Positions 1,410 through 41,962 of a stretch of 64,000 bases of DNA are shown here, piece by piece. Origin of the DNA: Desulfobacteraceae bacterium (lineage in GTDB: Bacteria > Desulfobacterota > Desulfobacteria > Desulfobacterales > Desulfobacteraceae). Location: assembly GCA_024226935.1 (NCBI GenBank), contig JAAELK010000222.1:27237-91236 (forward strand), in the 5' to 3' direction. The position numbers and the translations under genes are program-made. The notes under the pieces are model-generated. The model saw nothing but the letters and a program-made list of their open reading frames with translations, was not told the DNA's origin and did not search any database. Position 1 is the first letter of the stretch. Each line of letters opens with the position of its first letter.

Positions 1410-3131
1410 TTATATATTTTTATTGCTTTCAATTCTAAACAGCTTATCATTTTCAGACAACTCAAGAATAAAGTAATCTTCATTTTTTAATTCATTTGGG
1501 AGCTTGTCTTTAAGTATTGATGCTACAAATTGTATTTCATTTTTATTTACCAATTCAGCAATTTTTACCAACTGATTATCATGCATAAGCTCTTTCTTGT
1601 CATTCAACAAGAAATGCATACATGGGATATTTTCTTCGTCAGCAAAAAAAGTATATGCAATATCAAAACAAGAAATTTCACCTTGTTTTTTTCCGGTGCT
1701 AAAGTTTGTGTTAAAAGCAGTAAATTTATACAATTTTTGCCCTTTTTTATTGAGCACCTTGTCGTATTTTAATGCATATTGTTCGCCATATAATAAGTCA
1801 GAAGTAGAAGAAAAATATTTATTAAACTTATTTAATTGACGTTTTACAATACCCTCAAAACTGCCAGAAAAAAGTTCCTTGTCTATTGACTCCAAGTCAC
1901 CTTCATAAGATCTTAGGTTTTCTTCCACGTCCTCCAATTGTTGAATAATGCTTTCATATTCTCCCTTATTTTTATATTTTTCATTAAGCTCAACAATTAA
2001 TCTCTCCAATTCTTCAAATGAATCAGTTTTTGAAATGGCAGAAGATAATTTTGCTTCTTTTTCCAACAATGTACTGAGAATCAGATTTTTTTCATCTATT
2101 TTATCTATAAGTACAGGTAACTCTTTAGCTATATAGTTGGCTCTTTCCTGAATCATTTGATTATGGTATTGCACCATATCTTCAAATGTTTTCTGAATTG
2201 AAGTCATATTGCTAATAGCTTGGTCATAAATAATACGCAACTGCTGTAAATCTATTTTTGAAGCACTGGATGTTAATTCTCTTGTTGTTTCATCAATCAA
2301 ATCTTTCCTTAAATTTAACGCACCAAGTTCAGAGCTTGTCAAGTTAATTTGATATTTTAAATGATTAAGATTTTGTAAATCTTTTTCAAAATCCTCATTA
2401 ATATTTAAGTTTGATTTCTTTTTATCCAGTACTTCTATCTCATTCTCGATTAACGATAATGCCACTTCATATGCTGATTTCGTCTGGTTTTTTTCTAAGC
2501 GTTTTCTAAAAGTGTCTTCCTGTTTTATTTTTTGGAGTATTTCCTGTTTATCACTCCCTTTTATGAATTCACAGCCTAAAAGAAACAAATGTAATGTTTC
2601 ATACTCTGCATCAGAAGTATACCTGTCAAGCGTCTTGAGTGTGTTGTTAATGCTTAAATCTTTATATCGTATATTGTGAGATATTATCTGTCTAAAGCTA
2701 GGTTTTTTTGCTGTATGTTCAGGAAAGAATAGTTCTGTTAACTTCGGTTCAAATTCACCTTCAACATAATTTACATCATTAATTCTTCTTACTATTTTAT
2801 TGCGTGACAAAAAGTTCCGTTCAATAATTATATTTTGAGCATCTTCATTATCCAAGTTTTCAGCCAGGCATAATGTAATTAAAATATCTTTCTCAACTAA
2901 ATAATCTTTTACTAATTTATATATCTCCTTTTTAGACTCAGGATCTTCATAAATATTCTTTGGATTCGCTCCCAAACAAAAATCAATTAGCTTTAGAACT
3001 GTGGTTTTCCCAACGCTATTTCCAGTAATATGCCCTTCACTTGAATCAACAATAAGATTAATGCCTTTATGAAATTTAATGTTTCGAATAACATTAGAAT
3101 GGCTTGAAATCATAAGATATTTTAAAAACAT
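1410..3131 (-). CDS. ABC-three-component (ABC-3C) system ATPase, DUF2326-like coiled-coil ABC ATPase
   Basis: 573 aa. The N-terminus reads 'IRNIKFHKGINLIVD...TGNSVGKTT' (Walker A). A long K/E/L/N-rich predicted coiled coil follows, then a C-terminal 'CMHFLLNDKKELMHD' region. The start overlaps the upstream ORF by 10 nt. Confidence 0.75.
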   Translation of the reverse strand: MFLKYLMISSHSNVIRNIKFHKGINLIVDSSEGHITGNSVGKTTVLKLIDFCLGANPKNIYEDPESKKEIYKLVKDYLVEKDILITLCLAENLDNEDAQNIIIERNFLSRNKIVRRINDVNYVEGEFEPKLTELFFPEHTAKKPSFRQIISHNIRYKDLSINNTLKTLDRYTSDAEYETLHLFLLGCEFIKGSDKQEILQKIKQEDTFRKRLEKNQTKSAYEVALSLIENEIEVLDKKKSNLNINEDFEKDLQNLNHLKYQINLTSSELGALNLRKDLIDETTRELTSSASKIDLQQLRIIYDQAISNMTSIQKTFEDMVQYHNQMIQERANYIAKELPVLIDKIDEKNLILSTLLEKEAKLSSAISKTDSFEELERLIVELNEKYKNKGEYESIIQQLEDVEENLRSYEGDLESIDKELFSGSFEGIVKRQLNKFNKYFSSTSDLLYGEQYALKYDKVLNKKGQKLYKFTAFNTNFSTGKKQGEISCFDIAYTFFADEENIPCMHFLLNDKKELMHDNQLVKIAELVNKNEIQFVASILKDKLPNELKNEDYFILELSENDKLFRIESNKNI

Positions 3132-3346
3132 AATTCAACCTTGTTTTTTTTTAATTCAGCAATATTTATGAGATAAAGCCAGTCAAGACATAAAACAAAC
3201 ACGGGAAAAGACATTCCCTGAACTTCTTTTGATCTTGCATATAGATCTAGCATCTCAAGCTTATCTTGGTTTTGTAAAACCTGCAAAACAATTGCTCCAT
3301 TATAATAGATGCTGTTTTCAGGATGAATGTTATCAGGAAGCAGCAT
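3122..3346 (-). CDS. Small protein in the position of the ABC-3C 'middle component'
   Basis: 74 aa with no motif I recognise. It is translationally coupled on both sides, with a 14-nt overlap with the effector gene stop and a 10-nt overlap with the ATPase start. Confidence 0.6.
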   Translation of the reverse strand: MLLPDNIHPENSIYYNGAIVLQVLQNQDKLEMLDLYARSKEVQGMSFPVFVLCLDWLYLINIAELKKNKVELCF

Positions 3347-4301
3347 AATTATAACCTTCTGGGTTTTCTAAAATCTTGCATCGAATAAAAGCATCAACCA
3401 CTAAAATATCGACACATAATTCTAACTCATCTATCGGGATATGGATGTAATTTGCACTTACAAGGATTTTGTTTTTTATCTCTTCAATAACAGAATAAAA
3501 AATTTCATCGGAATTTCTATTATTTTTTAGGTTCAAATATGTTCGCTTCATCGTGGCTAATACTGAATTACTCTTATTATTTCCTAAACTATCAAATTCA
3601 GAATACTTGGCATCAACCCTTCCATGATATAAAACATACTCATCAATTGTGTCTTTTGCCGAAGCCAAATCGTTATAAGATATTTTTCTATTTACTTCAA
3701 AACGAATTAAACGGTCTGATTTATTTGCTTCATCCCACTGTTCCTTGGATAGAATATTAATTATTGTTGCCAAATTAGAATCTAACTTTACAATATCAAC
3801 TCCCCCCCCAAGCTCTTTTTTAATTTGCTCATAAACCATTTTTTGCCCATCGACATCCATATTTAATATATTGCGGAGAATAGAGGTGATGTCATAAATA
3901 TCTACTGACGGAGTAAATGATATACCGTGGGGATTTACAAAATTCTTTTTTCTTAAATTTGAAGCATCATTGGCAATAGATATAAATTTAAACGTATAGC
4001 CTAAATATTTTTTCATTATTTTTTTTGATAATGCCGACTCAACTTTTTGTTTGGTATTTGTTGAAGAAACTTGAATAATAATTTTATTTTTATCATCTAC
4101 TAAATCTATAGCTTCCACATTTTGAAGACGGGCATTTAAGTTCTCTAAATTATAACTATAAATCACATTAAACAAATGCTGATAAAAATTCTCAGAATGC
4201 ATATGCAAACTCAACATATTTAGCTTGCCGCCAGTAGCAATCCTATTAGCAAAAATATGCAGTTTCTCTTCAATGTAAGAATAGTATTTAGTCTGATTCA
4301 T
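3333..4301 (-). CDS. SMEK-domain protein (predicted ABC-3C effector component)
   Basis: 322 aa. The N-terminal 'LSLHMHSENFYQHLFNVIYSYNLENLN...VEAIDLVDDKNKIIIQVSSTNTKQKV' is recognised as a SMEK domain. It is the first gene of the three-gene unit. Confidence 0.7.
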   Translation of the reverse strand: MNQTKYYSYIEEKLHIFANRIATGGKLNMLSLHMHSENFYQHLFNVIYSYNLENLNARLQNVEAIDLVDDKNKIIIQVSSTNTKQKVESALSKKIMKKYLGYTFKFISIANDASNLRKKNFVNPHGISFTPSVDIYDITSILRNILNMDVDGQKMVYEQIKKELGGGVDIVKLDSNLATIINILSKEQWDEANKSDRLIRFEVNRKISYNDLASAKDTIDEYVLYHGRVDAKYSEFDSLGNNKSNSVLATMKRTYLNLKNNRNSDEIFYSVIEEIKNKILVSANYIHIPIDELELCVDILVVDAFIRCKILENPEGYNYAAS

Positions 4302-4634
4302 TATTTTTCATTCATCCAGTTCCCGCATTCACATATAACAAGAACATGTGTGGTTCTGTATATCTTACATTCTTTTCATAGTTTGGCAATGAAATCCAGG
4401 TCAAGTACAATTTTTCTAACTGGATATCACTCCAATGTAAAATTATCAAGATTTGATATCATCATTAAAATACCAGGGGACTTCAAAAAAGATATAATGG
4501 CCTGTTGATTAACAGCGAAATTGCACCGGATCAATATATTCATTACAGAAAGTGGCTGCTATATTATCTTGATTCTTGCAAAAAAATACACCCACGCATA
4601 TTTTTGATCCAAACAGCTTTTTGCTTTTTCTGGA

Positions 4635-4768
4635 AAAACCCGTGCTTGGATGAAAGCTTGCCCATATGCAAGGCGCAAGAAAGTTTGAAACCGGAGTGTA
4701 CTCCAGTACATGAGGTTTCAGGCTTTTGCAGCAACACGGCAGATGGGTGAGTTTTCGTTCAAACACTA
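4635..4768. repeat. Structured ~135-bp repeat element, copy A (second copy at 29044-29179)
   Basis: Roughly nine in ten positions match copy B by eye. It contains nested hairpins (cttgc-N6-gcaag, tgtac-N4-gtaca) and a 10-13-bp outer stem. It ends on the stop codon of the GNAT gene. Confidence 0.8.
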
Positions 4769-4798
4769 AGTATTTTCCAGCAGTTTTTGCCAGAACAA
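4765..4798. repeat. Direct repeat, right copy (within the 3' end of the GNAT gene)
   Basis: See 1326-1359. Confidence 0.85.
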
Positions 4799-5257: not shown

Positions 5258-5328
5258 TGATCAATTGTTCTCCTCTATCTATCCTTTATTGCTCTATCCA
5301 GCGTGAAATTGTCAAACAGCCACCAAAC

Positions 5329-5685: not shown

Positions 5686-5974
5686 GTTTCCTGGTCCAAT
5701 TTATATGAAACTCCCGATATAGCAGAAGAGAGTTTCTATCTTTGTTGTGGGCGGAACCCAGGATTAAATCCTTGGTCCGCCCATGGCGGTTATTTTCAAT
5801 TTTCCCGGATACTCTTGTGTACCCAGGCTGTGCATTGTGCAAGGCCACAAAAAAAAATTAAATCTTCCTTTAATATTAATAAAACCCTATAGATATCAAA
5901 TATTTGCCGGAATATCACCATATTTTTTTTACCAGGCGGGTAAAAAAATTTTCCCCCGCAAATATTTTTCCAGG

Positions 5975-6003
5975 TTGACTTTCCTGGCCCAGCCCATTAA
6001 AGA
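5975..6003 (+). promoter_or_regulatory. Sigma70-like promoter (TTGACT-17 nt-TAAAGA) upstream of the protease/CPBP genes; part of a module duplicated at 36985-37013
   Basis: The hexamers have 17-nt spacing. The spacer 'ttcNNNNcccaNgcccat' and the downstream leader are shared with the GGDEF gene upstream region. Confidence 0.5.
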
Positions 6004-6065
6004 GGAATAAGGAAAGGGTATTCTTAAATCACAGGCCCGAAAAATATAAAACATCAGGAAAAACC

Positions 6066-6776
6066 GTGACTTCAATAAAATCAATTCCAGTCAAAACCTT
6101 GGTAGTTCTATTTTTGTCCTGGTTTTTAATCTGTCCCCATTGCTTTGCAGGCAAAAATTCACAGGCAACCTATTCTAAAATAGCCGCAAAAGTGATGCCC
6201 GCCGTTGTCACGATTATTGTTTATGATTACAATGGCAAAATCGAAAATATAGGCAGCGGTTTTTTCTACAATGAAAAGGGAGATATCCTGACAAACAGCC
6301 ATGTACTTACCAAAAACACAAGGGCTGAAATTAAAACAAAGTCGGGAAAAAAGTATCCCATCGGATCAATTATTGAGAGAAATGAAAAAACAGATATTGT
6401 CCGGGCCCACACCCGCATTTCCAATAGGACTCCTTTTTTAAGGATTTCCCGGAACATTCCTGCCATGGGTAATCAGATCATGGTTGCAGGAAGCCCCATG
6501 GGCCTGGAACAAACCATCACCAACGGTATTATCTCAGCATGGCGAAAAATTCCAGCCTGGGGCAGAGTAATGCAGATATCGGCTCCCATATCACCAGGTT
6601 CCAGCGGCGGACCGGTTTTAAACATGGCAGGGGAAGTGGTTGGAATAGCTACCTGCCAAATGATCCAGGGACAAAACCTTAATTTTGCCGTTCCCGTTGA
6701 CAATATTTTTAATGAGCCAAAATCCACAAAGCTGAAATTTTATAAAAATGAGAAAGGCATCACCATAATTGAATAG
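6066..6776 (+). CDS. Secreted trypsin-like serine protease (S1C/DegP-type protease domain, no PDZ)
   Basis: 236 aa with a GTG start. It has a signal-like N-terminus, 'GSGFF...ILTNSHVL' (His) and 'SPGSSGGPVLN' (Ser). Confidence 0.8.
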   Translation: MTSIKSIPVKTLVVLFLSWFLICPHCFAGKNSQATYSKIAAKVMPAVVTIIVYDYNGKIENIGSGFFYNEKGDILTNSHVLTKNTRAEIKTKSGKKYPIGSIIERNEKTDIVRAHTRISNRTPFLRISRNIPAMGNQIMVAGSPMGLEQTITNGIISAWRKIPAWGRVMQISAPISPGSSGGPVLNMAGEVVGIATCQMIQGQNLNFAVPVDNIFNEPKSTKLKFYKNEKGITIIE

Positions 6777-7395
6777 ATTTCCAAGGGGCTGGTATCTTCT
6801 GGTTTCTATTTTCATAATTTTGGTAATTGATACCGGAATATCCTTTCCTGCCCATTTATCTCCCCTGGCCCTTATTGCAATCACCAGATTTGTCCAAACC
6901 CTGGTTCTTCTGGCCCTGATTTTCCTGGGTTCCGGGGGCACACGTTCTGTAGGACTTACCGGAAACAATTTATTTTCAGGGATAAAAACAGGCCTTCTCT
7001 GGTCTTGCCTTGCTGGAGCTTGCGCAGTTGGGGGGATAGGGCTTTTATATCTTGCAGGCATACATTTGCCAGGTCAAATTTATGCCTTCCCAGGAGGGAA
7101 AAATATTTTTGCATATTTAGGGATCGCCTGTTTTTTAAGCCCCATTGCTGAAGAACTGTTTTTCCGGGGATTTTTATATTCTTATTTTAGAAAAAAAGGC
7201 CTCTTTGTCGGCCTTGCCGCAAGCTCCTTTTTATTTGCCCTGGCCCACTTTTCCCAAGGTGGTCTGCCCCTGATTCAGTTTGCAGGAGGCATTTTATTTG
7301 CCCTTTCCTTTGAATATTCAAAAAGCCTGGCGGCCCCTTTGATCATACATATTTCAGGAAATCTGGCAATTTTTGCCTGGGGATATTTTTTATAA
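6769..7395 (+). CDS. CPBP family intramembrane glutamic endopeptidase (CAAX/Abi-like)
   Basis: 208 aa and multi-TM. It has the motifs 'PIAEELFFRGFLY', 'FALAHF' and 'IIHISGNL'. It overlaps the protease gene by 8 nt. The start (TTG) is uncertain. Confidence 0.8.
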   Translation: MNRFPRGWYLLVSIFIILVIDTGISFPAHLSPLALIAITRFVQTLVLLALIFLGSGGTRSVGLTGNNLFSGIKTGLLWSCLAGACAVGGIGLLYLAGIHLPGQIYAFPGGKNIFAYLGIACFLSPIAEELFFRGFLYSYFRKKGLFVGLAASSFLFALAHFSQGGLPLIQFAGGILFALSFEYSKSLAAPLIIHISGNLAIFAWGYFL

Positions 7396-7659
7396 AAAAA
7401 ATTTAACCCACCAACTTTACTTCTGCTTTAAGATGCCATGATCCCCATGGGGAAAATAACAAACAAATTGCATTATAAAATTTAATGGGATACGTTTAAT
7501 TTTACTTATTTCTTAAAGACAATAAGTTGTAAAAAAAGTTCTTTAATTAAAGTTACCGACAATTTAAAATACCCAAGTTTCCTGTTTTACTTTTTATACC
7601 AAATTAAAACTCCATGAAGATGACTATTAATCTCTAATCAGATAAATCCGGGGGGAAAT

Positions 7660-10600
7660 ATGATTAATATTAACAAGGCGGCTAAACGAGAACTTGTCAA
7701 ATTAAAAGGGGTCGGTGCAATATCGGCCGAAAAAATTTCTGAATTTCGTAAGAAAGGTGGGGTAATAAACTCCATTTCCGAACTAAAAGTTATTTGTAAT
7801 ATTCAGGAAAGATATGTGGAAGCACTCAAAAGTGAAATTGCTTTTTCCGATGTGAATGCTGAATTGGAAAAACCCCACGGACCCTGGCAAACCATAAATC
7901 CCGGTTTTGATAATTCCATGACGGATGTAAAATTTCATCTGTTTAATTTTAAAGTCAAATTCCAGGGACAAGATGATACCAACCTGCCTGATATTACTGG
8001 TTATCAATTAAGCGTCGGTTACAAAACAACAAGATCCCGTGCAAGAAGTAAAATATCTTATACTCAAAAAATTATAAATTATAATCTTGATAATTCATCC
8101 CATCTGGATATAGCCATACCAAAAACCAATCTTGCCGAAAACAGTTTTAATCTTATTCTTAAACGTCCCGATGGGGATCAAATTTATAACTCAACTCTCC
8201 AGATAGATGAAAACAAAGAAGTAATTATTAATCTTCCAGTTTTTGATAATGCAAAACTTTTTGTTAAAATATTAAAGCAGCCCGGAGTTAATTATGAAGG
8301 TTATAAACTTGAGTATACCTTAAAAATAAACCGGGGCGGATCGGGCATCGATACCCGCAAAAAGAACCATGAATTTGCATCGGTGAATGAAATTGCCCTG
8401 GAATGGGACTGCTTTGGATCCATTGAAAATATAAATATAGAACTATTAAGTCCAAATGGAGAACAAATCCTTGAACTGGACAAAACCCTGGAAGAGATTG
8501 AGACGGTTAATAACAAGAAAATTATTGAAATAAAATTACCCGAACCCGCAATAATTGATTACACGATACAGCTTGCAGAAGATATCAATTTGTTAACCAA
8601 CCCCTACCTTGACCACAAAATCATTCTTACCTTTGATCTGATTAATCCCCAAACCCTTAATTTTATCAAACGAATAAGTCGTTCATTTGATATTGATTCA
8701 AAGGGGCGGGCAAAAATAGTTTTTAATCACTACGCCCTTGTTGAGATGATGTCCCTAGAAGTAAAAGCACCGGGGGGAGAAATTATAAGTAAAAAAGAGA
8801 TCGCCCATGATGAGATAATCCCCAGTGGTGAGGTCAAAATCAATGTTCCTCCCCGGAAGATAAGTCTTGCCCAAAATATTGAAAAAATGCCGGAACGCCC
8901 AAAAAAAACAACATGCAGGGTTATCGACGCCGACGGGGGAAAAAAATTTACAGATGTCCAGGTAATCATTTATACAGCCACCAGGCAAAACCCTGAAGAA
9001 GACGATTTCAAGGCACTGATTATCAACCGCACTGAAACCAACGGCTATTTTATTATCGATACTCCCCAGGATTATTTTACTGGAGCCTTTGCACGAATCG
9101 GCATTCCGGGAAAAGAATATACCCATGGCAAAACAATTGATGTTCCTGTTCTCTTGGATGAAGACAATGTTATAATTATTACAAACGGTGAACCTGTTAT
9201 CAGCAAAAAACTATTTTTCCCGGCATCAATAATCCTAGTAGTCGATTCCGACCTTGAAGATGTTGAGGAATGTAATAAAAACAATTGTAACGATCTGAAT
9301 TTCCATAAACATAAAAAAATCATAGATGAGTTTTCTTATTATACTGTGGTAAGAACCACGGAACCTTCAATCCAGGGTTATACCCTTGAAGAAGATGCCC
9401 AGATGACTGTGGCTCAAATTTTAGATATCATACCATTATCTTCACAAAGCGATGGCAAAAAGATAAGTATCCCATTTGAACTTCATCAAAAAAATATTCG
9501 TAAAAATATTCTTCTCAAACATATCAATGACAAAAAAGGCCTGACACCGACTACCTTGATAAAAGCCATCAATGAAAGCGACGCACAAAAACTTCGCCAG
9601 GAGATAAAACCTGCTGCAAAAATCAAAGCCATCGGGCGGCACACTTTAGATATGGACAATGCCATCGACTGGGACAAGGATCCTACAATTTACCAGGCAA
9701 CAACACTTTCCCACGGGCATCTTTTGCAATACAAACAAGAATGGGTCAATGACGGCTACTCCATGGGAGATCTTTTATATAGCCTTCCCTTGGCTCCCGG
9801 ACAAAAAAAACAAATAGTTGTCCTTGATTGGGAACGCCGCGAAACAGCAAGCCGGGAAGAATCCCAGGAATATAACGAGCAATTGAATAATTTCCTGGGT
9901 AAAGACAGGGATGTGAGTGAAGTGGTATTTGGGATACTCAATGAAAACACGGCCGGAGGATCATCTGCAAGAACTTCTTCGGCAAGTGGCGGCCTAGGTC
10001 TTGGTTTTGCCGGTGAAAAATTCAGTGGCGTACTTGGAGTTTCCGGAGGCGCAAGCAAGGCAAGTTCCCATGCATGGCAGGATTCTTCACGATCTTTATC
10101 CTTAAATGATCTTCAGCAGATCAGGGATAAAACCATACAATCGGCCAATGCAACACGGGGTCAGCGTTCCACAGTAGTACAAAGCGCAGGCCAGGCGGAA
10201 AGATTCGCCGTTGAAACAGAAGTGGTTGCCAACCACAATCATTGCCATTCGCTGACCATACAATATTTTGAAGTCCTGCGGCACCTGAATGTCAACCAGC
10301 GGCTTTCAAGCGTCCAGGAATGTTTGTTTATTCCATTGATAATGTCCTCTTTTGATAATCCAAAAATTCTCAGGTGGAGGGAGAGTCTTTATAACCATAT
10401 ATACCCAAGTTACCTGCGCAGGGGTTTTAGCGCAATTGACCGCATTGAACATGATTATGAGGGCAGCGACCTTCCAGAGGGCAGTTTTGCAGATGCCGAT
10501 CTCATCAGCCTTGAAGGACATCTTTATATTAAATTTGAAATACCCTCACCAATAGATTTGGCTACCCATCAAACCCAGGCAGATCTTCTTGCAGCCTATG

Positions 10601-13104
10601 AAAATTTAGGCTTTTTCGGAGATATAATCGTTAGGAACCTGATTCGTATTTTTGAGGCCGAGGCAGAAAAAAAGATCGAGATATTTAATAAATATATTGC
10701 CCCGGAAATTGCGGCGGCCATTGTGGAATATCTGGATTTTCACGCCATAACTAAAGATGGGACAAGTATACATCTTCCCATTGATACCTCTCTTATATCA
10801 AAATTTCAAAACAATAAGAATTTATACCTTACATTACACCAGGATGAAGAAATATCAGGATTAAGCAGAAATAATATCAAAGCCATTACCATCGATAAAA
10901 TTGCTTCTATTACCCTGGGAAATGGTAAAACACTTGGTGAAGCTCTTCCCGACAACACAAAGGTGATAATCAGTTCCGGAACGCTTTCCTACAGCAGTGA
11001 GTATAACTCCGGTAATATTTTCAAAAAATCCCGGATTAATGATGACCTTATCGGATACAGCGGAATCGGAGACGATAATGAAAAGGTGAGAATAAGCACT
11101 CCTCTTTCCCGGCAGGAAAGACATAATCCCCGGAAAAAAGATCTGGAACTTGCCAATAGCCTCCATGACCATTTGAATGATAATATTGAATATTATCATA
11201 AGGTTATCTGGACAAAAATGAGTGCTGAACGTCGATTCATGCTTTTAGACGGTATTCAAGTGACAGATTACTCAGAACAAAAAAATTATCCCGGAGGCGT
11301 CATAAGAAGTGTTTCTTCGGTGGTTGAAAACAGAATTATCGGTATTGTAGGCAATAGCCTGGTTATGCCTGTATCTCCCGGTATGCGCCTTGATCCCAAT
11401 ACCAGGGGCAATGAAGTTGATCTGATCTCCCTTTACAAACCATTGACTCCCGGAGAACCGATCCATGTCAGCCTGCCGACCAAAGGGGTATTTGCAGAAG
11501 CGGTCCTTGGAACCTGTAATAGTTGTGAGCACAAAGAAGATGACAGGTTCTGGAGGTGGAGCGAAGATCCCATCCCTGATTCACCGACTGCCATAAACGC
11601 AGTTGATACCGGTTCCAGAAGAACAGATCCCCTTGATACCACACCTTCTGTCATGGCAACCCCCGTTGTAAACATACAAAATTCACCAACCATTCCCGAT
11701 CCTTCAGGAATGGCCGCCATGAACAGCCTGCTTGGCAAATCTTCATTTACAGATATCACAGGGCTTGATCAAAATCAAAAGAACGCATTGGCAGCCCTGA
11801 CAGCATCATACGATGCAACCAAGTTCATGGCAGGAAAAGCCGCCGATATGTCATCGCTTAACAATCAGCTTGAATCGATTAAAAAGGCTAAATCAAACAA
11901 TTTAATTTCAGATGAAAAAGCAAAGAATCTCACGGAATCGGCCATCAATAAGTCAATTCTTGGAACAAAAGATGAAAAATCAGCAAAACAGATGGATACA
12001 ACGGATGTGGGTAACCTTGCCCAGTCTGCCAATGCAAATGGGGTAGATCTTCTGGTTAAAAGACCATCGGGTGAAACAATCGAAGTTAAAAAACCAAGTT
12101 CCCAAACAGTAGAAGACAGCCTGGCAATGGTTACAATTAACCCGCTATCAGGCGATACGCGATCTTTCAAGCCATCAAAAAATGATAAAACAGGTGTAAT
12201 CAATCTTGAAGCAACCAAAAGCCCCACGGTTAAAGCCACCACATGGTACGTTGCATCGGGAATCGGCAATTTTACAGCTAAAAACAAATTAAAAACGGCT
12301 TTCCAGTGTCTGACACCGGGACTCCACAAATTATCAATTTTTGCCGGACAATATCACCACACAATCCCAATAAGCATTCCACAATTTGTTGAGGTTAAAG
12401 AAGATGCAGCCCTATTTAAAACAGCTCTTCAAACTTTGGGAGTATTCACTCTTAAAAAAGAGATACTTGCCCAGGCCAAAACAACCTGTGATCATATCCT
12501 GAAAACAACAAATGTAAGAACGGTATGGACAATATCAGGAGAAAAACTTCCGACCCACCTCTCTTCACAATATGTCACAATAGTAACATTTAAAGACACT
12601 GGCGCTAAGGGAGCTTTCGGTAAGGCACCGGTATTTCCAAACTATTTTTCATCCAAAGTATATAACGAAAAAATTGAAATCTATCCCGGTGGATATGTTC
12701 AGACTGTTCCCACCACAAGCTCGGTGACCCAGGAAATTCGTGCATTGGTTTCATATATAAAAAACCTTACAACAGTAACACAGGCTTTTGATGATTTTAC
12801 AGCACATTTTTTCGGAAGACTCATCGGTGAAACCATGGCCCATGAGATAATACATACTCTTCTTGGTCACGATGTACATTCTTCGACCCATAACACCCCG
12901 GCAATAGCAAACGACATCATGAATACCGGGGCCCAAAGAAATCTGCCTTCAAGAACAGGATATCAAATTGACATCATAAGTCTTCCCCTCAATGCAACGG
13001 AACAGGACTATTTTAATAAATTTATCGACAAGGGTTTATCCAAAGTCAATCACCTCACAAAAAAGAATCAGGATAAAATGGACAAAATTTTTCCTATTCT
13101 TTAA
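7660..13104 (+). CDS. Giant (1814 aa) multidomain orphan protein: N-terminal ComEA-like HhH, beta-sandwich repeats, conserved Gly/Ser-rich core, C-terminal HExxH zincin-like motif
   Basis: The ORF is uninterrupted, with a good SD (ggggggaaatATG). Motifs seen: 'LVKLKGVGAISAEKISEFRKKGG' (HhH), 'CRVIDADGGKKFTDVQVIIY...TETNGYFII' (CarboxypepD_reg-like) and 'ETMAHEIIHTLLGHD' (HExxH). Confidence 0.85.
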   Translation: MININKAAKRELVKLKGVGAISAEKISEFRKKGGVINSISELKVICNIQERYVEALKSEIAFSDVNAELEKPHGPWQTINPGFDNSMTDVKFHLFNFKVKFQGQDDTNLPDITGYQLSVGYKTTRSRARSKISYTQKIINYNLDNSSHLDIAIPKTNLAENSFNLILKRPDGDQIYNSTLQIDENKEVIINLPVFDNAKLFVKILKQPGVNYEGYKLEYTLKINRGGSGIDTRKKNHEFASVNEIALEWDCFGSIENINIELLSPNGEQILELDKTLEEIETVNNKKIIEIKLPEPAIIDYTIQLAEDINLLTNPYLDHKIILTFDLINPQTLNFIKRISRSFDIDSKGRAKIVFNHYALVEMMSLEVKAPGGEIISKKEIAHDEIIPSGEVKINVPPRKISLAQNIEKMPERPKKTTCRVIDADGGKKFTDVQVIIYTATRQNPEEDDFKALIINRTETNGYFIIDTPQDYFTGAFARIGIPGKEYTHGKTIDVPVLLDEDNVIIITNGEPVISKKLFFPASIILVVDSDLEDVEECNKNNCNDLNFHKHKKIIDEFSYYTVVRTTEPSIQGYTLEEDAQMTVAQILDIIPLSSQSDGKKISIPFELHQKNIRKNILLKHINDKKGLTPTTLIKAINESDAQKLRQEIKPAAKIKAIGRHTLDMDNAIDWDKDPTIYQATTLSHGHLLQYKQEWVNDGYSMGDLLYSLPLAPGQKKQIVVLDWERRETASREESQEYNEQLNNFLGKDRDVSEVVFGILNENTAGGSSARTSSASGGLGLGFAGEKFSGVLGVSGGASKASSHAWQDSSRSLSLNDLQQIRDKTIQSANATRGQRSTVVQSAGQAERFAVETEVVANHNHCHSLTIQYFEVLRHLNVNQRLSSVQECLFIPLIMSSFDNPKILRWRESLYNHIYPSYLRRGFSAIDRIEHDYEGSDLPEGSFADADLISLEGHLYIKFEIPSPIDLATHQTQADLLAAYENLGFFGDIIVRNLIRIFEAEAEKKIEIFNKYIAPEIAAAIVEYLDFHAITKDGTSIHLPIDTSLISKFQNNKNLYLTLHQDEEISGLSRNNIKAITIDKIASITLGNGKTLGEALPDNTKVIISSGTLSYSSEYNSGNIFKKSRINDDLIGYSGIGDDNEKVRISTPLSRQERHNPRKKDLELANSLHDHLNDNIEYYHKVIWTKMSAERRFMLLDGIQVTDYSEQKNYPGGVIRSVSSVVENRIIGIVGNSLVMPVSPGMRLDPNTRGNEVDLISLYKPLTPGEPIHVSLPTKGVFAEAVLGTCNSCEHKEDDRFWRWSEDPIPDSPTAINAVDTGSRRTDPLDTTPSVMATPVVNIQNSPTIPDPSGMAAMNSLLGKSSFTDITGLDQNQKNALAALTASYDATKFMAGKAADMSSLNNQLESIKKAKSNNLISDEKAKNLTESAINKSILGTKDEKSAKQMDTTDVGNLAQSANANGVDLLVKRPSGETIEVKKPSSQTVEDSLAMVTINPLSGDTRSFKPSKNDKTGVINLEATKSPTVKATTWYVASGIGNFTAKNKLKTAFQCLTPGLHKLSIFAGQYHHTIPISIPQFVEVKEDAALFKTALQTLGVFTLKKEILAQAKTTCDHILKTTNVRTVWTISGEKLPTHLSSQYVTIVTFKDTGAKGAFGKAPVFPNYFSSKVYNEKIEIYPGGYVQTVPTTSSVTQEIRALVSYIKNLTTVTQAFDDFTAHFFGRLIGETMAHEIIHTLLGHDVHSSTHNTPAIANDIMNTGAQRNLPSRTGYQIDIISLPLNATEQDYFNKFIDKGLSKVNHLTKKNQDKMDKIFPIL

Positions 13105-13220: not shown

Positions 13221-14642
13221 TCATAATTTATCATAGCGTTTTTTAATCTTTCTTAAAAACGCTATGCCAATGTTTTTGCCTTCATCATCCATAGTGTTCT
13301 GGATGGCGGTGTGCAGTTTGCCGTCTATTATAGTTTTATAATAAGATTTAATATCGTCATTAGAAATGTCTTCGGGAGTTAAAATATTGTATAAAATAGA
13401 GTAGGCCCAGATGCCACTAGCTAATTTTGCTTCACGCTGGTAAGCTTGCCTTACCCACCATCCTCGCCCAACTTTTCCTTTTCTCCGTCGATCCTGGATA
13501 TATTTTACCAAGGGACGATCACGGGGGCTATCCTTGATTACAGGTGCCTTTTTGGATGGTACTATATTTCGATAATCATCGTCGTAAAATTTTTTGAAAG
13601 TATCACCACCCCATGATATTTGTCTGTCGATCAGAAAAGAGAACTTATAATCCACCCGGCCTATCTTATCAATATAGTCGCTGGCTTTATCTATAAACGG
13701 GTTAACTTGATCCATGAACCAATTAAACGAGTCTTGGTTATAAGCTTTATTTTCCTTATCCAATTCATCTCCCCTTGTCATTATTATATCTGTTCTGCCA
13801 ACGACTGGTATTATTGTTACACTGTGGGATATTTTTGCATCAGGATCACTTGAAATGTAAGCGCAGGCAACATTGGCTGCTGCATTATTAAGGCAGTAAG
13901 CAAGACCAGCATCCACGGGAAGATTGAACTCTTTTAAGGCTGCATAGGCTTCATAGGACTCATTCCATCTTCTTGTTATCTCTTTAATATCGGTAGGGGT
14001 ATGACCGTGTACATGATACTTTCTATGTTTATTATCAAGCTTTATATCTTTTCTACGTTTTCTTATTTTCTCGAAACTTGTTTTTTCCTCTCCTACATTA
14101 TTTTCATTTGTGTGTCTCGACCATATACGCGGTATAATCTTTTTAGATATACCTGCTTCATCCCTTTGAGCCTCGATTTTTAGATTTTTTGTTGTCAGGC
14201 CAGCATGGGTAATGACGTAGGTATGTTTGGTTCGTACATATATTCTTCCATTCCCTTTGTCTAACAGATACAAAAAACTTTTAAAAAAGTTGTTGAATAA
14301 ATTTGGCTTCTTGTTCAATTCCATGCAAACTGTGATTCCGCCGTTTGCACTCCAATTGTACCATTTATTACTATAATCACTTCCGGTGTCATTACAAATT
14401 TCAGCTAAAATTGCATTCAAAAGTAACGATTCGTGATTTCCCAAAACAAAATGGTACCTGGGATCGGATTGCATTTTTTTTGCGTATTTTATAACAACTT
14501 CTGCTGATTTTGATCCTCTGTCTATGAGATCTCCTACGCACACAACTTGATCATGCTCTCTTAGGTTTTTGTCTATATACTCCATGACTGCATTGTAAGC
14601 GTCAAGATTGCCGTGTATATCGCTAAATATATATATTCCCAT
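13221..14642 (-). CDS. Calcineurin-like metallophosphoesterase (PPP/ApaH-like) with a long uncharacterised C-terminal region
   Basis: 473 aa. Motifs seen: 'IYIFSDIHGN', 'VCVGDLIDRG', 'LGNHE' and 'HVHGHTP'. The C-terminal ~200 aa have no motif I recognise. Confidence 0.8.
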   Translation of the reverse strand: MGIYIFSDIHGNLDAYNAVMEYIDKNLREHDQVVCVGDLIDRGSKSAEVVIKYAKKMQSDPRYHFVLGNHESLLLNAILAEICNDTGSDYSNKWYNWSANGGITVCMELNKKPNLFNNFFKSFLYLLDKGNGRIYVRTKHTYVITHAGLTTKNLKIEAQRDEAGISKKIIPRIWSRHTNENNVGEEKTSFEKIRKRRKDIKLDNKHRKYHVHGHTPTDIKEITRRWNESYEAYAALKEFNLPVDAGLAYCLNNAAANVACAYISSDPDAKISHSVTIIPVVGRTDIIMTRGDELDKENKAYNQDSFNWFMDQVNPFIDKASDYIDKIGRVDYKFSFLIDRQISWGGDTFKKFYDDDYRNIVPSKKAPVIKDSPRDRPLVKYIQDRRRKGKVGRGWWVRQAYQREAKLASGIWAYSILYNILTPEDISNDDIKSYYKTIIDGKLHTAIQNTMDDEGKNIGIAFLRKIKKRYDKL

Positions 14643-15029
14643 GTTTGAGCCTTTTTTTTGTAAGTTTTTATAAACTAATTAAAATAATTACACTTTTCCC
14701 CTTTTGTGTAAATCATTTAACAATGATTAATTATTTAATAATTGTTTTTTTTATTTTATCACTTTTTTTTATATAAATGCTTGGTTTGATTGCAGTATAT
14801 GGGTATTCTTTTGAAAGTTCCGGCCCTATTTTTTTAATTTGTTTTTATTAATGGGGAGACAGGTTATGGAATTTTATCTTATCTTTGCATTGTAAAGTTT
14901 TAGGGTGTTGATTATGATGGAAAGCTAGTAGCAATACCACTAGGTAATTCGTACTTTTCTACCAAACGGAATATGGATTTCTGCATGATCATTAATAAAG
15001 TCAATGTATTTAACTGATGTTAAATAGGT

Positions 15030-15088
15030 ATGACATCACACTGCGCGTGATCATAATTATGTTCATGTAATTTAATTTACGCTCCTTA
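15030..15088. repeat. Inverted repeat, left arm (46-bp perfect core 15041-15086)
   Basis: The core ctgcgcgtgatcataattatgttcatgtaatttaatttacgctcct is the exact reverse complement of 16462-16507. Partial matches extend the repeat to about 57 bp. Confidence 0.9.
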
Positions 15089-15146
15089 GTGGGGGGAGTA
15101 GTCACTCCTCATCCATTAAAATCATGACGAGCATCATCAATACCGA

Positions 15147-16385
15147 TTATTGCCGTTGGTAAAACTCTCCAAGAAATTGAAAACTTTCGACCTCGGTTTC
15201 ATCCTGATTCAGAATAAGGTTAAAGGATTTACCAACATCAGATTCGAAATATGGACACTCCTTGTTGGTAAAAAGCTTTCTTTCTGTAAGATCCGGTATT
15301 AGTGTCCAGGTCCAGCCTGCTTCATTTTCCCATTGCATGGAATTACCGACCATGGAAATGGTACCTGTGTGCCATTCATTGGTGGGAGGTTGGCGAATAT
15401 ATTGTCCGAATACATCATTGAGCGAGAGTCCATCATCACCAACATCAACATAATCCGAACCGTTACCTGAAATTCCATGGGCTCCTGTGTATGGATAATG
15501 TGTTTTTTCGCAGTCTGCAAGTGTGGAAGTCAGTGGTTCATGGTTTTGAATCGCATCTGTGGCAACACACTTAAACACCTCCTCAGACGATCCGATATAC
15601 AGATTATCAATACCTCCGATATATTTTTGGGCACCTGCATTTAGGATGGCTGGCTGCAATGGGCTGTTATGAACCTGGCATGAGTTGAAATAAAGGACTT
15701 TGCTGTTTAATGTATCTAATGGCATATTCCGAAAGTCGTTATAAGATAATGTTCCATTGGAAACCATGATGCCGGTAGTGCTTCCATGGCCGATTCTGCC
15801 AAAGTATACCAGGTCATCGCATTCAAGCCAGTTTAGTATTGCAGATCTGTTTTCTGCATTTCCCAAAAGTACCTCCACGTTATATCCTGCATCTTCTGCT
15901 ACCCCAGCAGCAAAATTGATCCCGGCAACTGCTGTTTGTATTCCTGTCTCACATGTTGAAAACACCATCTCCACGGATTTATCAGGGCAACTTGCATAAA
16001 CTTCCACATCCCCCTGGGAATAGTCAGCTTCTGTTTCCAGATATTTTGTTTCAATAGAGATTACCTGGTAGGCATCATTGATGTCTATGCGTGTTGTTTC
16101 AAATAGATAGGTATGGTTGCTTAATATATACACAATCAAATGATCAGGGTCACCAGATGGTTTATATATGATTTTTACGTTTACCTTATAATGAAGATTT
16201 TCAGATAATTTTAAGTTGTCAGTGATAATTGATTCTATTTTATTGTCATCTATGGCTTTTGCATACTGGTAATGGGTTGGAAATATATTTATGGGTACAT
16301 CTGCCCATGCAATTGAACTTAAAGATAATACAAAAAACAGCGTGATAGCACTTTGCAACATTTTTGTTTTAAATGAATTTTTCAT
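15147..16385 (-). CDS. Secreted gingipain-like (peptidase C25 / caspase-fold) cysteine protease homologue with an uncharacterised C-terminal domain
   Basis: 412 aa with signal peptide 'MLQSAITLFFVLSLSSIAWA'. 'FGRIGHGSTTG...(about 30 aa)...LYFNSCQVHN' matches the His-Gly / Cys dyad spacing of C25 proteases. Confidence 0.55.
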   Translation of the reverse strand: MKNSFKTKMLQSAITLFFVLSLSSIAWADVPINIFPTHYQYAKAIDDNKIESIITDNLKLSENLHYKVNVKIIYKPSGDPDHLIVYILSNHTYLFETTRIDINDAYQVISIETKYLETEADYSQGDVEVYASCPDKSVEMVFSTCETGIQTAVAGINFAAGVAEDAGYNVEVLLGNAENRSAILNWLECDDLVYFGRIGHGSTTGIMVSNGTLSYNDFRNMPLDTLNSKVLYFNSCQVHNSPLQPAILNAGAQKYIGGIDNLYIGSSEEVFKCVATDAIQNHEPLTSTLADCEKTHYPYTGAHGISGNGSDYVDVGDDGLSLNDVFGQYIRQPPTNEWHTGTISMVGNSMQWENEAGWTWTLIPDLTERKLFTNKECPYFESDVGKSFNLILNQDETEVESFQFLGEFYQRQ

Positions 16386-16459
16386 TTTGCACCTTTTTTT
16401 ATTGTTTAATGGATTCTTGGATTCACTTAAACATTTAGGATAAATTCCCCATGAAATTC

Positions 16460-16518
16460 TTAGGAGCGTAAATTAAATTACATGAACATAATTATGATCA
16501 CGCGCAGTACGATGTCAT
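16460..16518. repeat. Inverted repeat, right arm (46-bp perfect core 16462-16507)
   Basis: Reverse complement of 15041-15086. Confidence 0.9.
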
Positions 16519-16870
16519 GCCACAGGTTGTCATGCATTGCTGATTGAACGGAGACCTATGGTGAATTTGTTCAGGTTAATTCGTTTGCATTCCTAAGCGG
16601 ATATAATTCCTCAAATGGATCAGCGAATTTGTCGCCCCTGCAAAAATGTAGTGATACTTTTTGCAGGAGGGCAGTAAATTTTGCAAGATCCATCTAAAGC
16701 AAATTGAAGTATCACCTCCGTTCTTTAGTGTTTGATTTTGTCATCTTTTGAGAGCCTTATCTTCAGAAGAATCGTTTATTGTTGCCCATAACGATGTGTA
16801 AGACTAAATAACTACAGAATATAAATATTACGCTAAGATTTATGATTTATTAGCTACCTACACAGACCTG

Positions 16871-17019
16871 TATATCTTGTAAATTTTAAATGATATCCGA
16901 CCAGCTAATAAGAACATGATACAAAAGCGATATCAATATTTTAAACCCCTGTCAAGATATTCCAATACAGTAATTTTAGTAAGTCTTTGAAGTTCAATTT
17001 TAAAGCATGGTTGGAGTTG
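16871..17019 (-). promoter_or_regulatory. Repeated promoter module, copy E1 (minus-strand -35 TTGGAA at 16960-16965, 16-nt spacer, -10 TAAAAT at 16938-16943)
   Basis: It shares sequence blocks with E2 (17986-18093) and E3 (23438-23623): tatcaatattt..tgtNaagatatt, ctttgaRgttcaattttaaagSatggttgRagttg, and tatatcttgtaaatttNaatgatatcc. Confidence 0.55.
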
Positions 17020-17053
17020 ACGCCGAAAAGATAGGACAGGACAGGGCGTCAAC
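17016..17053 (-). terminator. 9-bp stem hairpin (gttgacgcc-N20-ggcgtcaac) at the distal edge of E1
   Basis: The arms are a perfect inverted repeat. It lies downstream of the DUF2335 unit. No clear U-run follows. Confidence 0.3.
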
Positions 17054-17303
17054 TCATTCTCCAGGGACCTCCTGTCCCGATTCCTAAGGTAAATACTGCT
17101 CTTTTCGCATCCATGCGAACCGCAGTATTTAATAGGAATCGTGCATTTTTTTTAAAATTTTCAGAGGTATCAATAATCCAGCAAATGTATAGACGAATAA
17201 AATCCCAATCTAATTTTTTTTTGAAGAGAATATTGATTTCCATACTCACAGCCAGCTAACGTACGACTATCAAAACTTTGGGGGGGGAGATGCTGGGGAG
17301 TAA

Positions 17304-17795
17304 TTATTTATCTGGATATGGCACAACTTCTTTGGATTGTTGATCTCCATTGTTGGAATGAGGGTTATTTCTGCCAACGATAAAAGCAGAAACAAGAGCG
17401 ACAACCCCGCCAGTCCCTATAAAGCCACCGGGCCACGGTGCCCCATTAGTAGCTGTGTATGCACCGCTCACAATAGCTATTATTCCAATTGCAAGCCCAC
17501 AGTACTGTCCTCTTTTAGTATCACCAGCTTCATTTTTTAACCCTTCTATTTCAGCATCAAGAGACTTCTCCTCCAACATATGGCGGTGGGCAGTTTCTTT
17601 CTCCGCCATTGCCAGAATCCGGTCAGCAGCCCCCGGCAATAACTGTTCATAGCCTGCCAAAATTTGGGGTGGAGGGAGCGGACCTTGAAATTGTTCAGCC
17701 TTATATTCTTGTTGCACTATAGTTGGGTTATTTTTATCTGGGAGGCGCTTAGCGGGGGGAGGCCTTCGAGCCTTATTTCTTTTACCTTTTCCCAT
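17304..17795 (-). CDS. DUF2335-like membrane protein
   Basis: 163 aa. 'FQGPLPPPQILAGYEQLLPGAADRILAMAEKETAHRH' is followed by two C-terminal TM helices. Confidence 0.65.
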   Translation of the reverse strand: MGKGKRNKARRPPPAKRLPDKNNPTIVQQEYKAEQFQGPLPPPQILAGYEQLLPGAADRILAMAEKETAHRHMLEEKSLDAEIEGLKNEAGDTKRGQYCGLAIGIIAIVSGAYTATNGAPWPGGFIGTGGVVALVSAFIVGRNNPHSNNGDQQSKEVVPYPDK

Positions 17796-17973
17796 TGGTA
17801 TAGGAGGAGGTCGCTTTTGATATAGCCATCCCTACTCTTTCCCAATCACCTTTTAGACATTCTGCGCTTGATTGGCAAGGCTTGTATGATCTAACGGAGT
17901 ATTTTTTCCTAGGGTATATATTAATTACAGACCCAACCCCTTTTATAAAATTTCTTGATAATTTTTTTACCAT
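17782..17973 (-). CDS. Small conserved-looking hypothetical protein, translationally coupled to the DUF2335 gene
   Basis: 63 aa. It overlaps the downstream gene by 14 nt. The 'SSAECLKGDWERVGMAISKA' motif resembles small proteins I have seen annotated as hypothetical in other genomes. Confidence 0.45.
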   Translation of the reverse strand: MVKKLSRNFIKGVGSVINIYPRKKYSVRSYKPCQSSAECLKGDWERVGMAISKATSSYTNGKR

Positions 17974-17985
17974 AATATAAAAACA

Positions 17986-18093
17986 GTATCAATATTTCTA
18001 ATACATGTAAAGATATTTCAACGAGTAACTATGGTGGAAATCTTTGAGGTTCAATTTTAAAGGATGGTTGAAGTTGTGATTAATTATCCCTAG
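17986..18093 (-). promoter_or_regulatory. Repeated promoter module, copy E2 (-35 TTGAAA at 18016-18021, 16-nt spacer, -10 AGAAAT at 17994-17999)
   Basis: Blocks are shared with E1 and E3. The distal block gattaattatcccta is shared with E3. It lies immediately upstream of the 17973 start. Confidence 0.55.
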
Positions 18094-22786: not shown

Positions 22787-23392
22787 TTATTCTTTTTCTA
22801 TTTTTTCAATCACTTGCCAAAACTCTTTAAATATTTCCTGTTTGATTAATTTCTCAAATCTATCACCCGAAATATTATCAGGGTGGTACATTTTCAAAAA
22901 CGATATTTTAAGCCTCTTGAATTTATTATTATTGTTCAGTGTATTGCTTTCATGCAATTTTGACTCGGCTACCTTAGTTCTTTTTTTCCATTTATCCCGT
23001 GAAGCTACTGCTTTTTTCCCTTTTTGCCTTAAGTCATCAATGATTTGGTTGAGCTTTATTATTTCAAACTCATGACTGTTACAATCAGTGTTCTTGTTAT
23101 CATCATTGGGATGGGGAGACTTTATGTTATCTTTTATTTCTGACTGTTTTTCAAAATTTAAATAGTTTTTATATGATTTGATTTTGTATTTCAACAGTTG
23201 TATATCAGTAGCAATTCTGCTGGACATTTCATCGTATGATACACCTTTTTCTTTAGCCATTTGTGATATGTATTTTATACTGATAGCTGATTTTTTTAAT
23301 TCACTTAAACGAATTTCAAATGAATTCAGTGTTTGCAAGACCATTTCTATTGAAGAAAAAGATTCATCCAATATTTTGATTATTTCATTCAT
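22787..23392 (-). CDS. Coiled-coil protein with a C-terminal J-domain-like HPD motif
   Basis: 201 aa, K/E-rich. 'FKRLKISFLKMYHPDNISGDRFEKLIKQEIFKEF' resembles helices II-III of a DnaJ J-domain. Confidence 0.45.
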   Translation of the reverse strand: MNEIIKILDESFSSIEMVLQTLNSFEIRLSELKKSAISIKYISQMAKEKGVSYDEMSSRIATDIQLLKYKIKSYKNYLNFEKQSEIKDNIKSPHPNDDNKNTDCNSHEFEIIKLNQIIDDLRQKGKKAVASRDKWKKRTKVAESKLHESNTLNNNNKFKRLKISFLKMYHPDNISGDRFEKLIKQEIFKEFWQVIEKIEKE

Positions 23393-23437
23393 ATGTATCC
23401 GTTAATATTGAGTATAACAAATAACTATACTGACTTA

Positions 23438-23623
23438 TATATCTTGTAAATTTCAATGATATCCTATTTGTATAAACGACAAACCTACTGGCACAACTAC
23501 TGACAGAAATTTGTATCAGTATTGTAAATACGTGCAAAGATATTTCAACAGGCTGTAATGGAAATATAATGCATTATTGGATATCAATCAAACATTTTGT
23601 CCGCTCAAGATTAATTATCCCTA
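23438..23623 (-). promoter_or_regulatory. Repeated promoter module, copy E3 (-35 TTGAAA at 23543-23548, 16-nt spacer, -10 TACAAT at 23521-23526)
   Basis: Blocks are shared with E1 (tatatcttgtaaatttNaatgatatcc and the promoter core) and with E2 (promoter core and gattaattatcccta). Confidence 0.55.
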
Positions 23624-36757: not shown

Positions 36758-36984
36758 AAAGACCTCATTCCTCCACTATTAGTAATCATTAATTTCGATT
36801 GATATAATTACTCAGCATCATTAATGGCCCTAGGATAAGCGCTATAACAAACACCTCCACTTGTCAACCTCAAAAAAGTTCCCCTGGAACGGATATAGTA
36901 AATCATCGGGGTTTTAAGATAAAGAATACTTTTTTTTTGCATTTAACCATATCAAATGAAATGGGGTAAAAATATTTTGCCGGT

Positions 36985-37013
36985 TGACTTTCTATCCCAT
37001 GCCCATTAAACAA
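36985..37013 (+). promoter_or_regulatory. Sigma70-like promoter (TTGACT-17 nt-TAAACA) upstream of the GGDEF gene; a paralogue of the module at 5975-6003
   Basis: See 5975-6003. Confidence 0.5.
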
Positions 37014-37069
37014 TAATAGTCTTTCTTAAATACTGACCCTAAAAATATGAAATATCAGGATAATAAAAA

Positions 37070-41882: not shown

Positions 41883-41929
41883 TTGTTGCTTGAACGACAA
41901 CTCACCCATAAAAAACAAAAATCCCCGGC

Positions 41930-41962
41930 GGGATCAACCTGCCGGGGATTTTTGCAATATTA
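41930..41962. terminator. Bidirectional rho-independent terminator between the cyclase gene and rplQ
   Basis: The stem atccccggc-N11-gccggggat is flanked by an A-run upstream and a T-run downstream. Confidence 0.7.

Follow-up and report, generated by a model that had tools for sequence, protein, structure and literature searches.

Inverted repeats bound several described kinds of bacterial segment. Invertons usually carry promoters or alternative gene segments, and arms of 46-63 bp are long for them. At the RNA level, RNase III stems flank the 16S and 23S rRNA, and hok mRNA has a 5'-3' fold-back pairing. Mobile insertion cassettes with single passenger genes, transposon ends of 33-97 bp and no transposase have been documented, and some in Bacillus, with an endopeptidase gene as passenger, are mobilisable in trans (PMC4337579). 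Invertible regions exist without an adjacent recombinase (PMC9881135), and insertion sequences (IS) in Wolbachia flip naturally when their terminal inverted repeats recombine ectopically with each other (PMC3004938). In this study, we analysed a 64-kb stretch of DNA from a Desulfobacteraceae bacterium (assembly GCA_024226935.1, contig JAAELK010000222.1, positions 27,237 to 91,236; hereafter the window), in which a long inverted repeat encloses one complete gene for a predicted secreted cysteine peptidase. A preliminary description of the window had offered three explanations: an inverton that would disconnect the gene from an outside promoter, an RNA stem joining both ends of the mRNA, and the termini of a non-autonomous mobile cassette. 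We found that the repeat is real and discrete and that promoter-like sites lie in both of its arms. The repeat is absent from related loci. We tentatively rank first a non-autonomous cassette of the mobile-insertion-cassette kind, or the relic of one. The anatomy is of known kinds, either cassettes bounded by inverted repeats or invertible segments, and requires no new mechanism.

The repeat was examined in the single assembled orientation of the window, from sequence data alone. Its perfect 46-nucleotide (nt) core occupies 15041-15086 and recurs, exactly reverse-complemented, at 16462-16507. These are the two matches of the 46-mer in the window, and none was found in 100 dinucleotide-preserving shuffles. 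The perfect repeat of the preliminary description was confirmed in this way, and so was its extension to about 57 bp, since self-BLAST aligned 57 nt at 96.5% identity. A repeat finder extended the arms further, to 63 nt at 94% complementarity (15027-15089 and 16459-16521, 1369 nt apart), with the mismatches concentrated near the outer tips. Gapped local alignment of 300 nt on each side gave no homology past the arms, inward or outward. The repeat is sharply bounded, since these alignments scored no better than shuffled sequence, and a larger inverted duplication was rejected on the same result. An assembly artefact was discounted by inference, because k-mer overlap errors give no imperfect extension beyond a perfect core, as the arms do here. 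No other inverted pair in the window reaches 22 nt with its arms within 6 kb of each other. They bound a segment of 1,495 bp, 83% of it coding, with the left arm 58 nt past the stop codon of the enclosed gene and the inner end of the right arm 74 nt 5' of its start codon.

Each arm also contains an 18-nt near-palindrome, TGATCATAATTATGTTCA, at 15048-15065 with its mirror copy at 16483-16500. It is symmetric at 16 of 18 positions and overlaps the -10 element of the promoter-like site described below. No further copy was found in the window at up to 3 mismatches. It is possibly the binding site of a dimeric protein. At the tip of the right arm, reading by eye showed an octamer, TGTCATGC, at 16513-16520 and a second direct copy at 16528-16535. 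This extra copy lies 15 nt further out, beyond the right arm only.

The arms surround exactly one intact open reading frame (ORF) on the minus strand (15147-16385), as the preliminary description had stated. The start codon is preceded by the Shine-Dalgarno sequence AAGGTG at 16395-16390, 4 nt before the ATG, and it is also supported by the closest homologue locus (L001), with which DNA similarity starts 13 nt before the ATG. The product has 412 aa. Its N-terminus is a typical Sec signal, read by eye as a signal peptide of about residues 1-28 with AWA|D cleavage after residue 28, and residues 4-21 form a helix in the AlphaFold2 model. Pfam, NCBIfam and PDB sequence searches with the protein gave no match (Pfam and NCBIfam to E values of 0.01). 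About 50 relatives were found, mostly hypothetical proteins from Desulfobacteraceae genome bins, and several of them bear C-terminal PPC, FN3 or similar extracellular domains. In an alignment of 31 family members, a GHG motif (His200) and an NSC motif (Cys236) were invariant. The AlphaFold2 model had a mean predicted local distance difference test (pLDDT) score of 80.5, with a core above 90 and 95 poorly predicted C-terminal residues. Foldseek matched this model in the PDB to SAVED-CHAT (8tl0), gingipain RgpB (4ief), separase and procaspase-3 with probabilities of 0.92-1.0. Because of these fold matches, the invariant His200 and Cys236 and the signal peptide, the product is predicted to be a secreted clan-CD (caspase/gingipain-fold) cysteine peptidase with a His/Cys pair. 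The earlier label of gingipain-like therefore stands at the level of the fold, through the match to RgpB, but not as membership of peptidase family C25, whose profile gave no match in Pfam or NCBIfam at E values up to 0.01. The family is uncurated, yet its fold is recognisable.

We then compared promoter-like sites within and beyond the arms. Across 14600-17350, the best sigma-70-like site was ATGACA-16-CATAAT, which agrees with the consensus at 10 of 12 positions and lies within both arms, facing inward. In the right arm, the site occupies 16491-16518 on the minus strand, with the -35 element ATGACA at 16518-16513, a 16-nt spacer and the -10 element CATAAT at 16496-16491. It sits where the promoter of the gene would be expected, about 100 nt 5' of the ATG. 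The predicted start is near 16484, giving a 5' untranslated region (UTR) of about 100 nt. The same site in the left arm (15030-15057, plus strand) points inward and is antisense to the gene. Matches of this quality occur 30 times per 128 kb on both strands together, or about once per 4 kb per strand, and many are within genes. Canonical sigma-70-type sites do occur in this organism, as shown by a near-consensus TTGACA-17-TAAAAT at 58022-57994, between rpoC (58040-62419) and the S7 gene (57047-57514). No sigma-54-like promoter was found upstream of the enclosed gene (16386-17303). We regard the arm sites as candidate promoters.

Two modules beyond the right arm are also directed at it. The first, E1, lies at 16915-17019 on the minus strand; it is 107 nt long and 78% identical to 17971-18076, upstream of a DUF2335 gene. 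E1 and this paralogue share a candidate promoter, TTTAAA-18-TATCAT, that matches at 9 of 12 positions, and no candidate in E1 is better than 9 of 12. The second module (16855-16898, minus strand) is 44 nt long and 84% identical to 23422-23464, just upstream of a 201-aa gene at 22787-23392. On the minus strand, a single terminator-like site was found from the outside modules to the left arm, a weak hairpin of 5 pairs at 16308-16291 within the gene. On the plus strand, the gene holds three terminator-like hairpins, one of them at 16014-16040. Thus, candidate promoters are present both inside and outside the repeat. The preliminary description had placed the only recognisable promoter, in E1, outside the right arm. 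This did not hold, since the best match sits in each arm, facing inward. E1 itself is a real duplicated module and a plausible outside promoter, but its candidates reach 9 of 12 and are not the only ones. Because both arms hold identical inward promoter-like sites, the argument that a flip would disconnect the gene from its promoter is undermined.

As for further features of E1, its two copies form 107-nt direct repeats on both sides of the DUF2335 gene (17304-17795) and have in common a conserved TTGAAC(T/C)TCAA palindrome together with promoter-like hexamers. Next to E1, the minus strand of 17010-17150, downstream of the DUF2335 gene, folds into two long hairpins (-56.6 kcal/mol, z -6.0) with no Rfam match.

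To place the repeat among relatives, 58 homologous loci were fetched from one-genome-per-species contigs, and 52 of these were testable for flank pairing. Self-BLAST found no inverted repeat around the homologues in any of the 58 loci. In a more sensitive test, 500 nt upstream of each gene were aligned to the reverse complement of 500 nt downstream. The best score in the 52 testable loci was 15, equal to the shuffled maximum of 15, whereas the window scored 51 against 14 for shuffled sequence. The closest homologue, P0002 in L001, shares 63% amino-acid and 68% DNA identity with the gene, over the coding sequence only, and nothing outside the ORF is common to L001 and the window. The repeat is therefore no trait of the protease family. 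Its absence from the 52 homologous loci fits a structural event in this lineage better than a regulatory design kept across the family.

Based on this layout, the arms may be the ends of a compact 1,495-bp single-gene cassette carrying the secreted caspase-fold peptidase. Such a cassette would consist of the passenger gene and terminal inverted repeats without a transposase, or equally it could be the immobilised relic of one, lying in intergenic DNA of patchwork character within a variable part of the chromosome. Several findings agree with this. The cassette-type layout is present, with 63-nt arms and only the 412-aa peptidase ORF between them, and this complete gene is tightly bracketed, with 74 nt and 58 nt between the ORF and the arms. 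The neighbourhood is variable and holds ABC-3C defence genes and large secreted-protein genes, the closest homologue has an insertion sequence as its neighbour, and short non-coding sequence is duplicated and dispersed in the window as five further repeat families. In each arm, the inward sigma-70-like site is overlapped by the near-palindrome, an arrangement that resembles many insertion-sequence ends. Many insertion-sequence ends carry inward promoters of that kind. Whichever way the segment lies, the gene would then be transcribed from an arm of its own. It would not be switched by disconnection from the arm promoter, because both arms supply the same site. Forty-six base pairs of identity are within the range that supports homologous recombination, and the perfect identity of the arms could suffice for occasional flipping of the RecA type. 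In addition, a read-through transcript that crosses both arms from the outside modules would form a duplex of about 60 bp.

Among described systems, the closest are the mobile insertion cassettes such as MIC231 of Bacillus cereus and the TnXax1-derived TALE cassettes of Xanthomonas. They likewise hold one passenger gene between terminal inverted repeats, with no transposase, in a variable region. The present locus differs from them in having no target-site duplication, no cognate IS or transposon with related ends, no further copies in the collections searched, and no GGGG or GAGGG tip. Similarly, the inversion of IS elements in Wolbachia (PMC3004938) involves a segment between terminal repeats that flips without a dedicated invertase, and the 46-bp identity here could allow the same. 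Those elements, however, carry a transposase, whereas this segment carries a protease gene and its inversion is something that we infer.

Several observations weigh against the cassette. No target-site duplication of at least 3 nt was present at the tips (15026/16522), where the best off-register matches were 4-5 nt. The window holds no second arm copy, full or partial, and none was found in 477 kb of fetched loci. Arm 18-24-mers from the inner and outer halves had no exact match in 185,579 representative genomes, and arm k-mers had none in JGI metagenomes or viral contigs. The source genome lies outside these collections, because even both known arms gave no match there. BLAST of the arms against plasmids and phages returned chance-level matches only. 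No cognate transposase is known, and matching IS or transposon ends were not found in plasmids, in phages, or in the IS beside the closest homologue. The clustering of the arm mismatches toward the outer tips also does not favour a cassette, as transposon ends are usually best conserved there. Finally, the promoter-like sites are consensus matches, and the chance that a 63-nt arm holds such a match in either orientation is about 3%. The cassette reading of the preliminary description is therefore kept in first place for its layout, and only tentatively, because the target duplication, the cognate element and other copies are all missing. Should the segment prove able to move or invert, it would illustrate how a secreted caspase-fold protease outside the curated families is moved or varied in an uncultured Desulfobacteraceae-like bacterium, and a cassette with its promoter in the terminal repeats would be added to the known cases. 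For now, the main value of the analysis is corrective: the repeat is real, the outside-promoter basis of phase variation is insecure, and the feature is lineage-specific, not a design of the gene family.

Candidate sources of the repeat were also sought in known elements. The closest homologue P0002 adjoins an insertion sequence and lies 570 nt downstream of its DDE transposase in L001. This IS was rejected as the source of the repeat, since the protease gene is about 370 nt outside the IS and the 13-bp IS ends are unrelated to the arms. The IS end ATGCAACGCAGTC was read by eye at about 1633-1645, about 190 nt after the transposase stop codon, and the protease gene is placed outside the element because this matching end sits between it and the transposase. 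The element was defined from two copies in different contexts, in L064 and L065 (both 2764-4710), as an IS of 1,947 bp with the 13-bp ends GACAGCGTTGCAC and GAGGGCGTTGCAC and target duplications of 7-8 bp. It also occurs in L001 (3-1645) and L061. In the window, tblastn with the L001 transposase found no transposase remnant. As an observation on this IS, its DDE transposase (about 507-590 aa) falls below the NCBIfam cut-offs for IS6, IS256 and ISL3. Its relatives number more than 140, and most of them come from contigs of 2.0-2.6 kb. The element may represent an unclassified IS group.

Ends of the Tn3 type were considered from an inner 'ACGCT..AAG' motif and a GG tip in the arms. They were rejected, as the tips GGTATGAC and GGCATGAC have no GGGG and the 5-nt flanks differ (AAATA versus ACAGG). 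The arms also hold TGCGC-N10-TTATGTT at dif-like spacing. A dif/Xer module was rejected as well, since only 15 of 22 arm positions agree with E. coli dif, and about 10 unrelated 28-mers of the window do equally well. Agreement with the predicted Desulfobacteraceae dif sites was 11-12 of 22, counted by hand (PMC3025954 supplement). The dif modules of Acinetobacter plasmids resemble the locus in that genes lie between inverted recombination sites and the host recombinases are encoded elsewhere. They differ from it because the arms here match dif no better than background.

One alternative put forward earlier is a programmed whole-gene inverton, in which a distant site-specific recombinase flips the 1.4-kb segment and makes protease secretion phase-variable. 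The gene in its assembled orientation would be read from E1 and the neighbouring module, and the flipped gene would be antisense to both. The long, near-perfect inverted repeat around the segment agrees with this, and the near-palindrome in each arm could be the core site of a recombinase. The two promoter-type modules that face the right arm from outside have paralogues upstream of other genes, and the way from them to the gene is free of terminator-like sites. Invertible regions with no recombinase nearby are also known (PMC9881135). However, no recombinase domain was found in ORFs of at least 150 aa across the 64 kb, and only the assembled orientation was seen. The repeat is missing at all 52 testable homologous loci, and the palindrome occurs at no other site in the window. 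The identical inward sites in both arms mean that a flip would keep the gene coupled to them. Known invertons, including invertible promoters, the Hin/Gin/Cin segments and gene-altering inversions (PMC9881135), share with this locus the inverted repeats, a segment of about 1 kb, a secreted product, which is their usual target, and a recombinase that need not adjoin. Here, in contrast, the segment comprises a whole gene together with the ribosome-binding site, and the promoter probably lies in the repeat. The segment lacks alternative gene parts, its arms are unusually long, no recombinase was found among the ORFs of at least 150 aa in the 64 kb, and one orientation is known. A whole single gene is also an unusual cargo for invertons in general. 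The inverted repeat on which the promoter-disconnecting inverton was based is thus real, but the reading is weakened by the arm sites, by the lack of an invertase in the window and by the 52 loci without the repeat, and we consider it unlikely. We also considered a programmed whole-gene switch of an undescribed kind, in which a distant recombinase flips the protease gene between long arms that also bear identical convergent promoters, and the orientation sets whether outside transcription reinforces sense or antisense RNA. It would be a DNA-level switch that is read out via double-stranded RNA. We consider this version quite improbable.

Another explanation requires no activity of the repeat at all. 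The left arm could be the leftover of a tail-to-tail duplication of promoter and gene, or the arms could be two copies of one dispersed intergenic module that happen to lie in adjacent intergenic regions. A functionless relic of this sort is doubtful, although it accounts for the absence of a target-site duplication and for the sharp boundaries, which are expected where a duplication ends and a deletion ends. The five further dispersed repeat families and the E1 pair, which flanks the DUF2335 gene as direct repeats, also agree with it. Tandem paralogues of the protease family occur elsewhere (P0013, P0017 and P0018, all on one contig), but no trace of a second gene copy was found beside the left arm. 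The 46 nt of perfect identity would require a recent event or homogenisation, and the other repeat pairs are all direct, four of the five being more diverged (75-90%). The arm sites suggest a further rival with twin convergent promoters. The right copy would drive the protease mRNA and the left copy a full-length antisense RNA, and one regulator binding the palindrome would set the balance or loop the DNA. The identical ATGACA-16-CATAAT sites are the best in the region, the near-palindrome overlaps the -10 element, and the plus-strand terminator-like hairpins in the gene could end the antisense RNA. Nevertheless, this design would not need 63 nt of identity and is conserved in no relative, and the sites are consensus matches with the chance expectation of about 3% per arm, so that we find it rather far-fetched. 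The last alternative is the long-range RNA stem, in which transcripts started outside would pair their 5' and 3' UTRs over about 60 bp and RNase III would excise or inactivate the protease mRNA, as with ribosomal RNA precursors. The pairing is physically sound. As RNA, the arms pair with -95.5 kcal/mol. When the 1495-nt sense RNA is folded to minimum energy, 61 arm-arm pairs are retained, and two of the four DNA mismatches become G-U pairs. The path from the outside modules to the left arm is free of terminator-like sites save the weak hairpin at 16308-16291. However, the stem needs a transcript start beyond the right arm. A start at the arm promoter would leave about 25 nt of the 5' arm in the transcript, worth -34 kcal/mol. 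Any inverted repeat folds in this way, and the fold is no evidence of selection. Rfam gave no match in the window, either at the gathering threshold or at E values up to 1, and the flanks of the 52 homologues have no such stem. In the rRNA processing stems and hok, complementary 5' and 3' flanks likewise enclose a functional RNA, but those are conserved across species, while this stem occurs in no relative examined and would depend on co-transcription of both arms. The RNA-stem claim thus held for its pairing, and as an explanation of the locus we consider it very unlikely.

The cassette reading is set in the following surroundings. The window is chromosomal, with rpoB/C, a ribosomal-protein cluster, SecY, a type IV pilus/type II secretion system (T2SS) cluster and sensor kinases. 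Its left third is a variable region that contains ABC-3C components, a pair of trypsin-like and CAAX-protease genes, a 1814-aa protein, a 473-aa metallophosphoesterase, the cassette and the DUF2335 gene. A Pfam search of the window ORFs of at least 150 aa detected no recombinase or transposase domain, and for all of these ORFs the reported absence of an invertase or transposase held. The window proteins are on record in no other assembly in which the opposite orientation might be seen, and the flanking phosphoesterase has a sole relative, 58% identical. The ABC-3C-type defence components (1410-4301) comprise a DUF2326 protein and a protein with SMEK and CTD10, adjoining a GNAT acetyltransferase. 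At 6066-13104, genes for a trypsin-like peptidase and a CAAX-type protease are followed by that for the 1814-aa protein, in which an N-terminal helix-hairpin-helix domain is combined with a HEIIH (zincin-like) motif at the C-terminal end.

Self-comparison of the window gave, besides the arms, five further short dispersed repeat families of 34-136 nt with 75-97% identity and one local palindrome at 41916-41954. These families show that the genome duplicates and scatters short non-coding sequence. Of all the repeat families in the window, only the 63-nt arms form an inverted pair, and they are among the best conserved. A 136-nt intergenic element occurs in two copies, at 4634-4768 and 29044-29179, which are 90% identical. 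The plus strand forms one extended hairpin at -63.3 kcal/mol (z -7.8, against z -2.9 for the minus strand), and the element has no Rfam match. A miniature transposable element of the foldback type, which it resembles, is one possibility, and a small RNA absent from the annotation is another. A 34-nt repeat (1326-1359 and 4765-4798, 97% identical) abuts the 136-nt element at 4768, which suggests mosaic intergenic repeat units. A 104-nt module at 5960-6062 and 36970-37063 (75% identical, with a conserved GGTTGACTTTC) lies just upstream of two plus-strand genes, those for the trypsin-like peptidase (6066) and a GGDEF protein (37070).

The 58 homologous loci held two further long inverted pairs, each around a complete small module with no transposase, and such pairs around complete modules occur about once per 200 kb in these environmental genomes. 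In L018, from an Oligoflexia bin, a 50-nt inverted repeat with 96% identity (1023-1072 and 1945-1994) surrounds a complete HEPN and nucleotidyltransferase pair, which is toxin-antitoxin-like. A similar extra tip copy, GGTGCCACTT, lies outside its left arm. In L009, a 34-nt inverted repeat with 88% identity (5282-5315 and 6513-6546) surrounds a YqeY-like gene, beside three tandem paralogues of the protease family.

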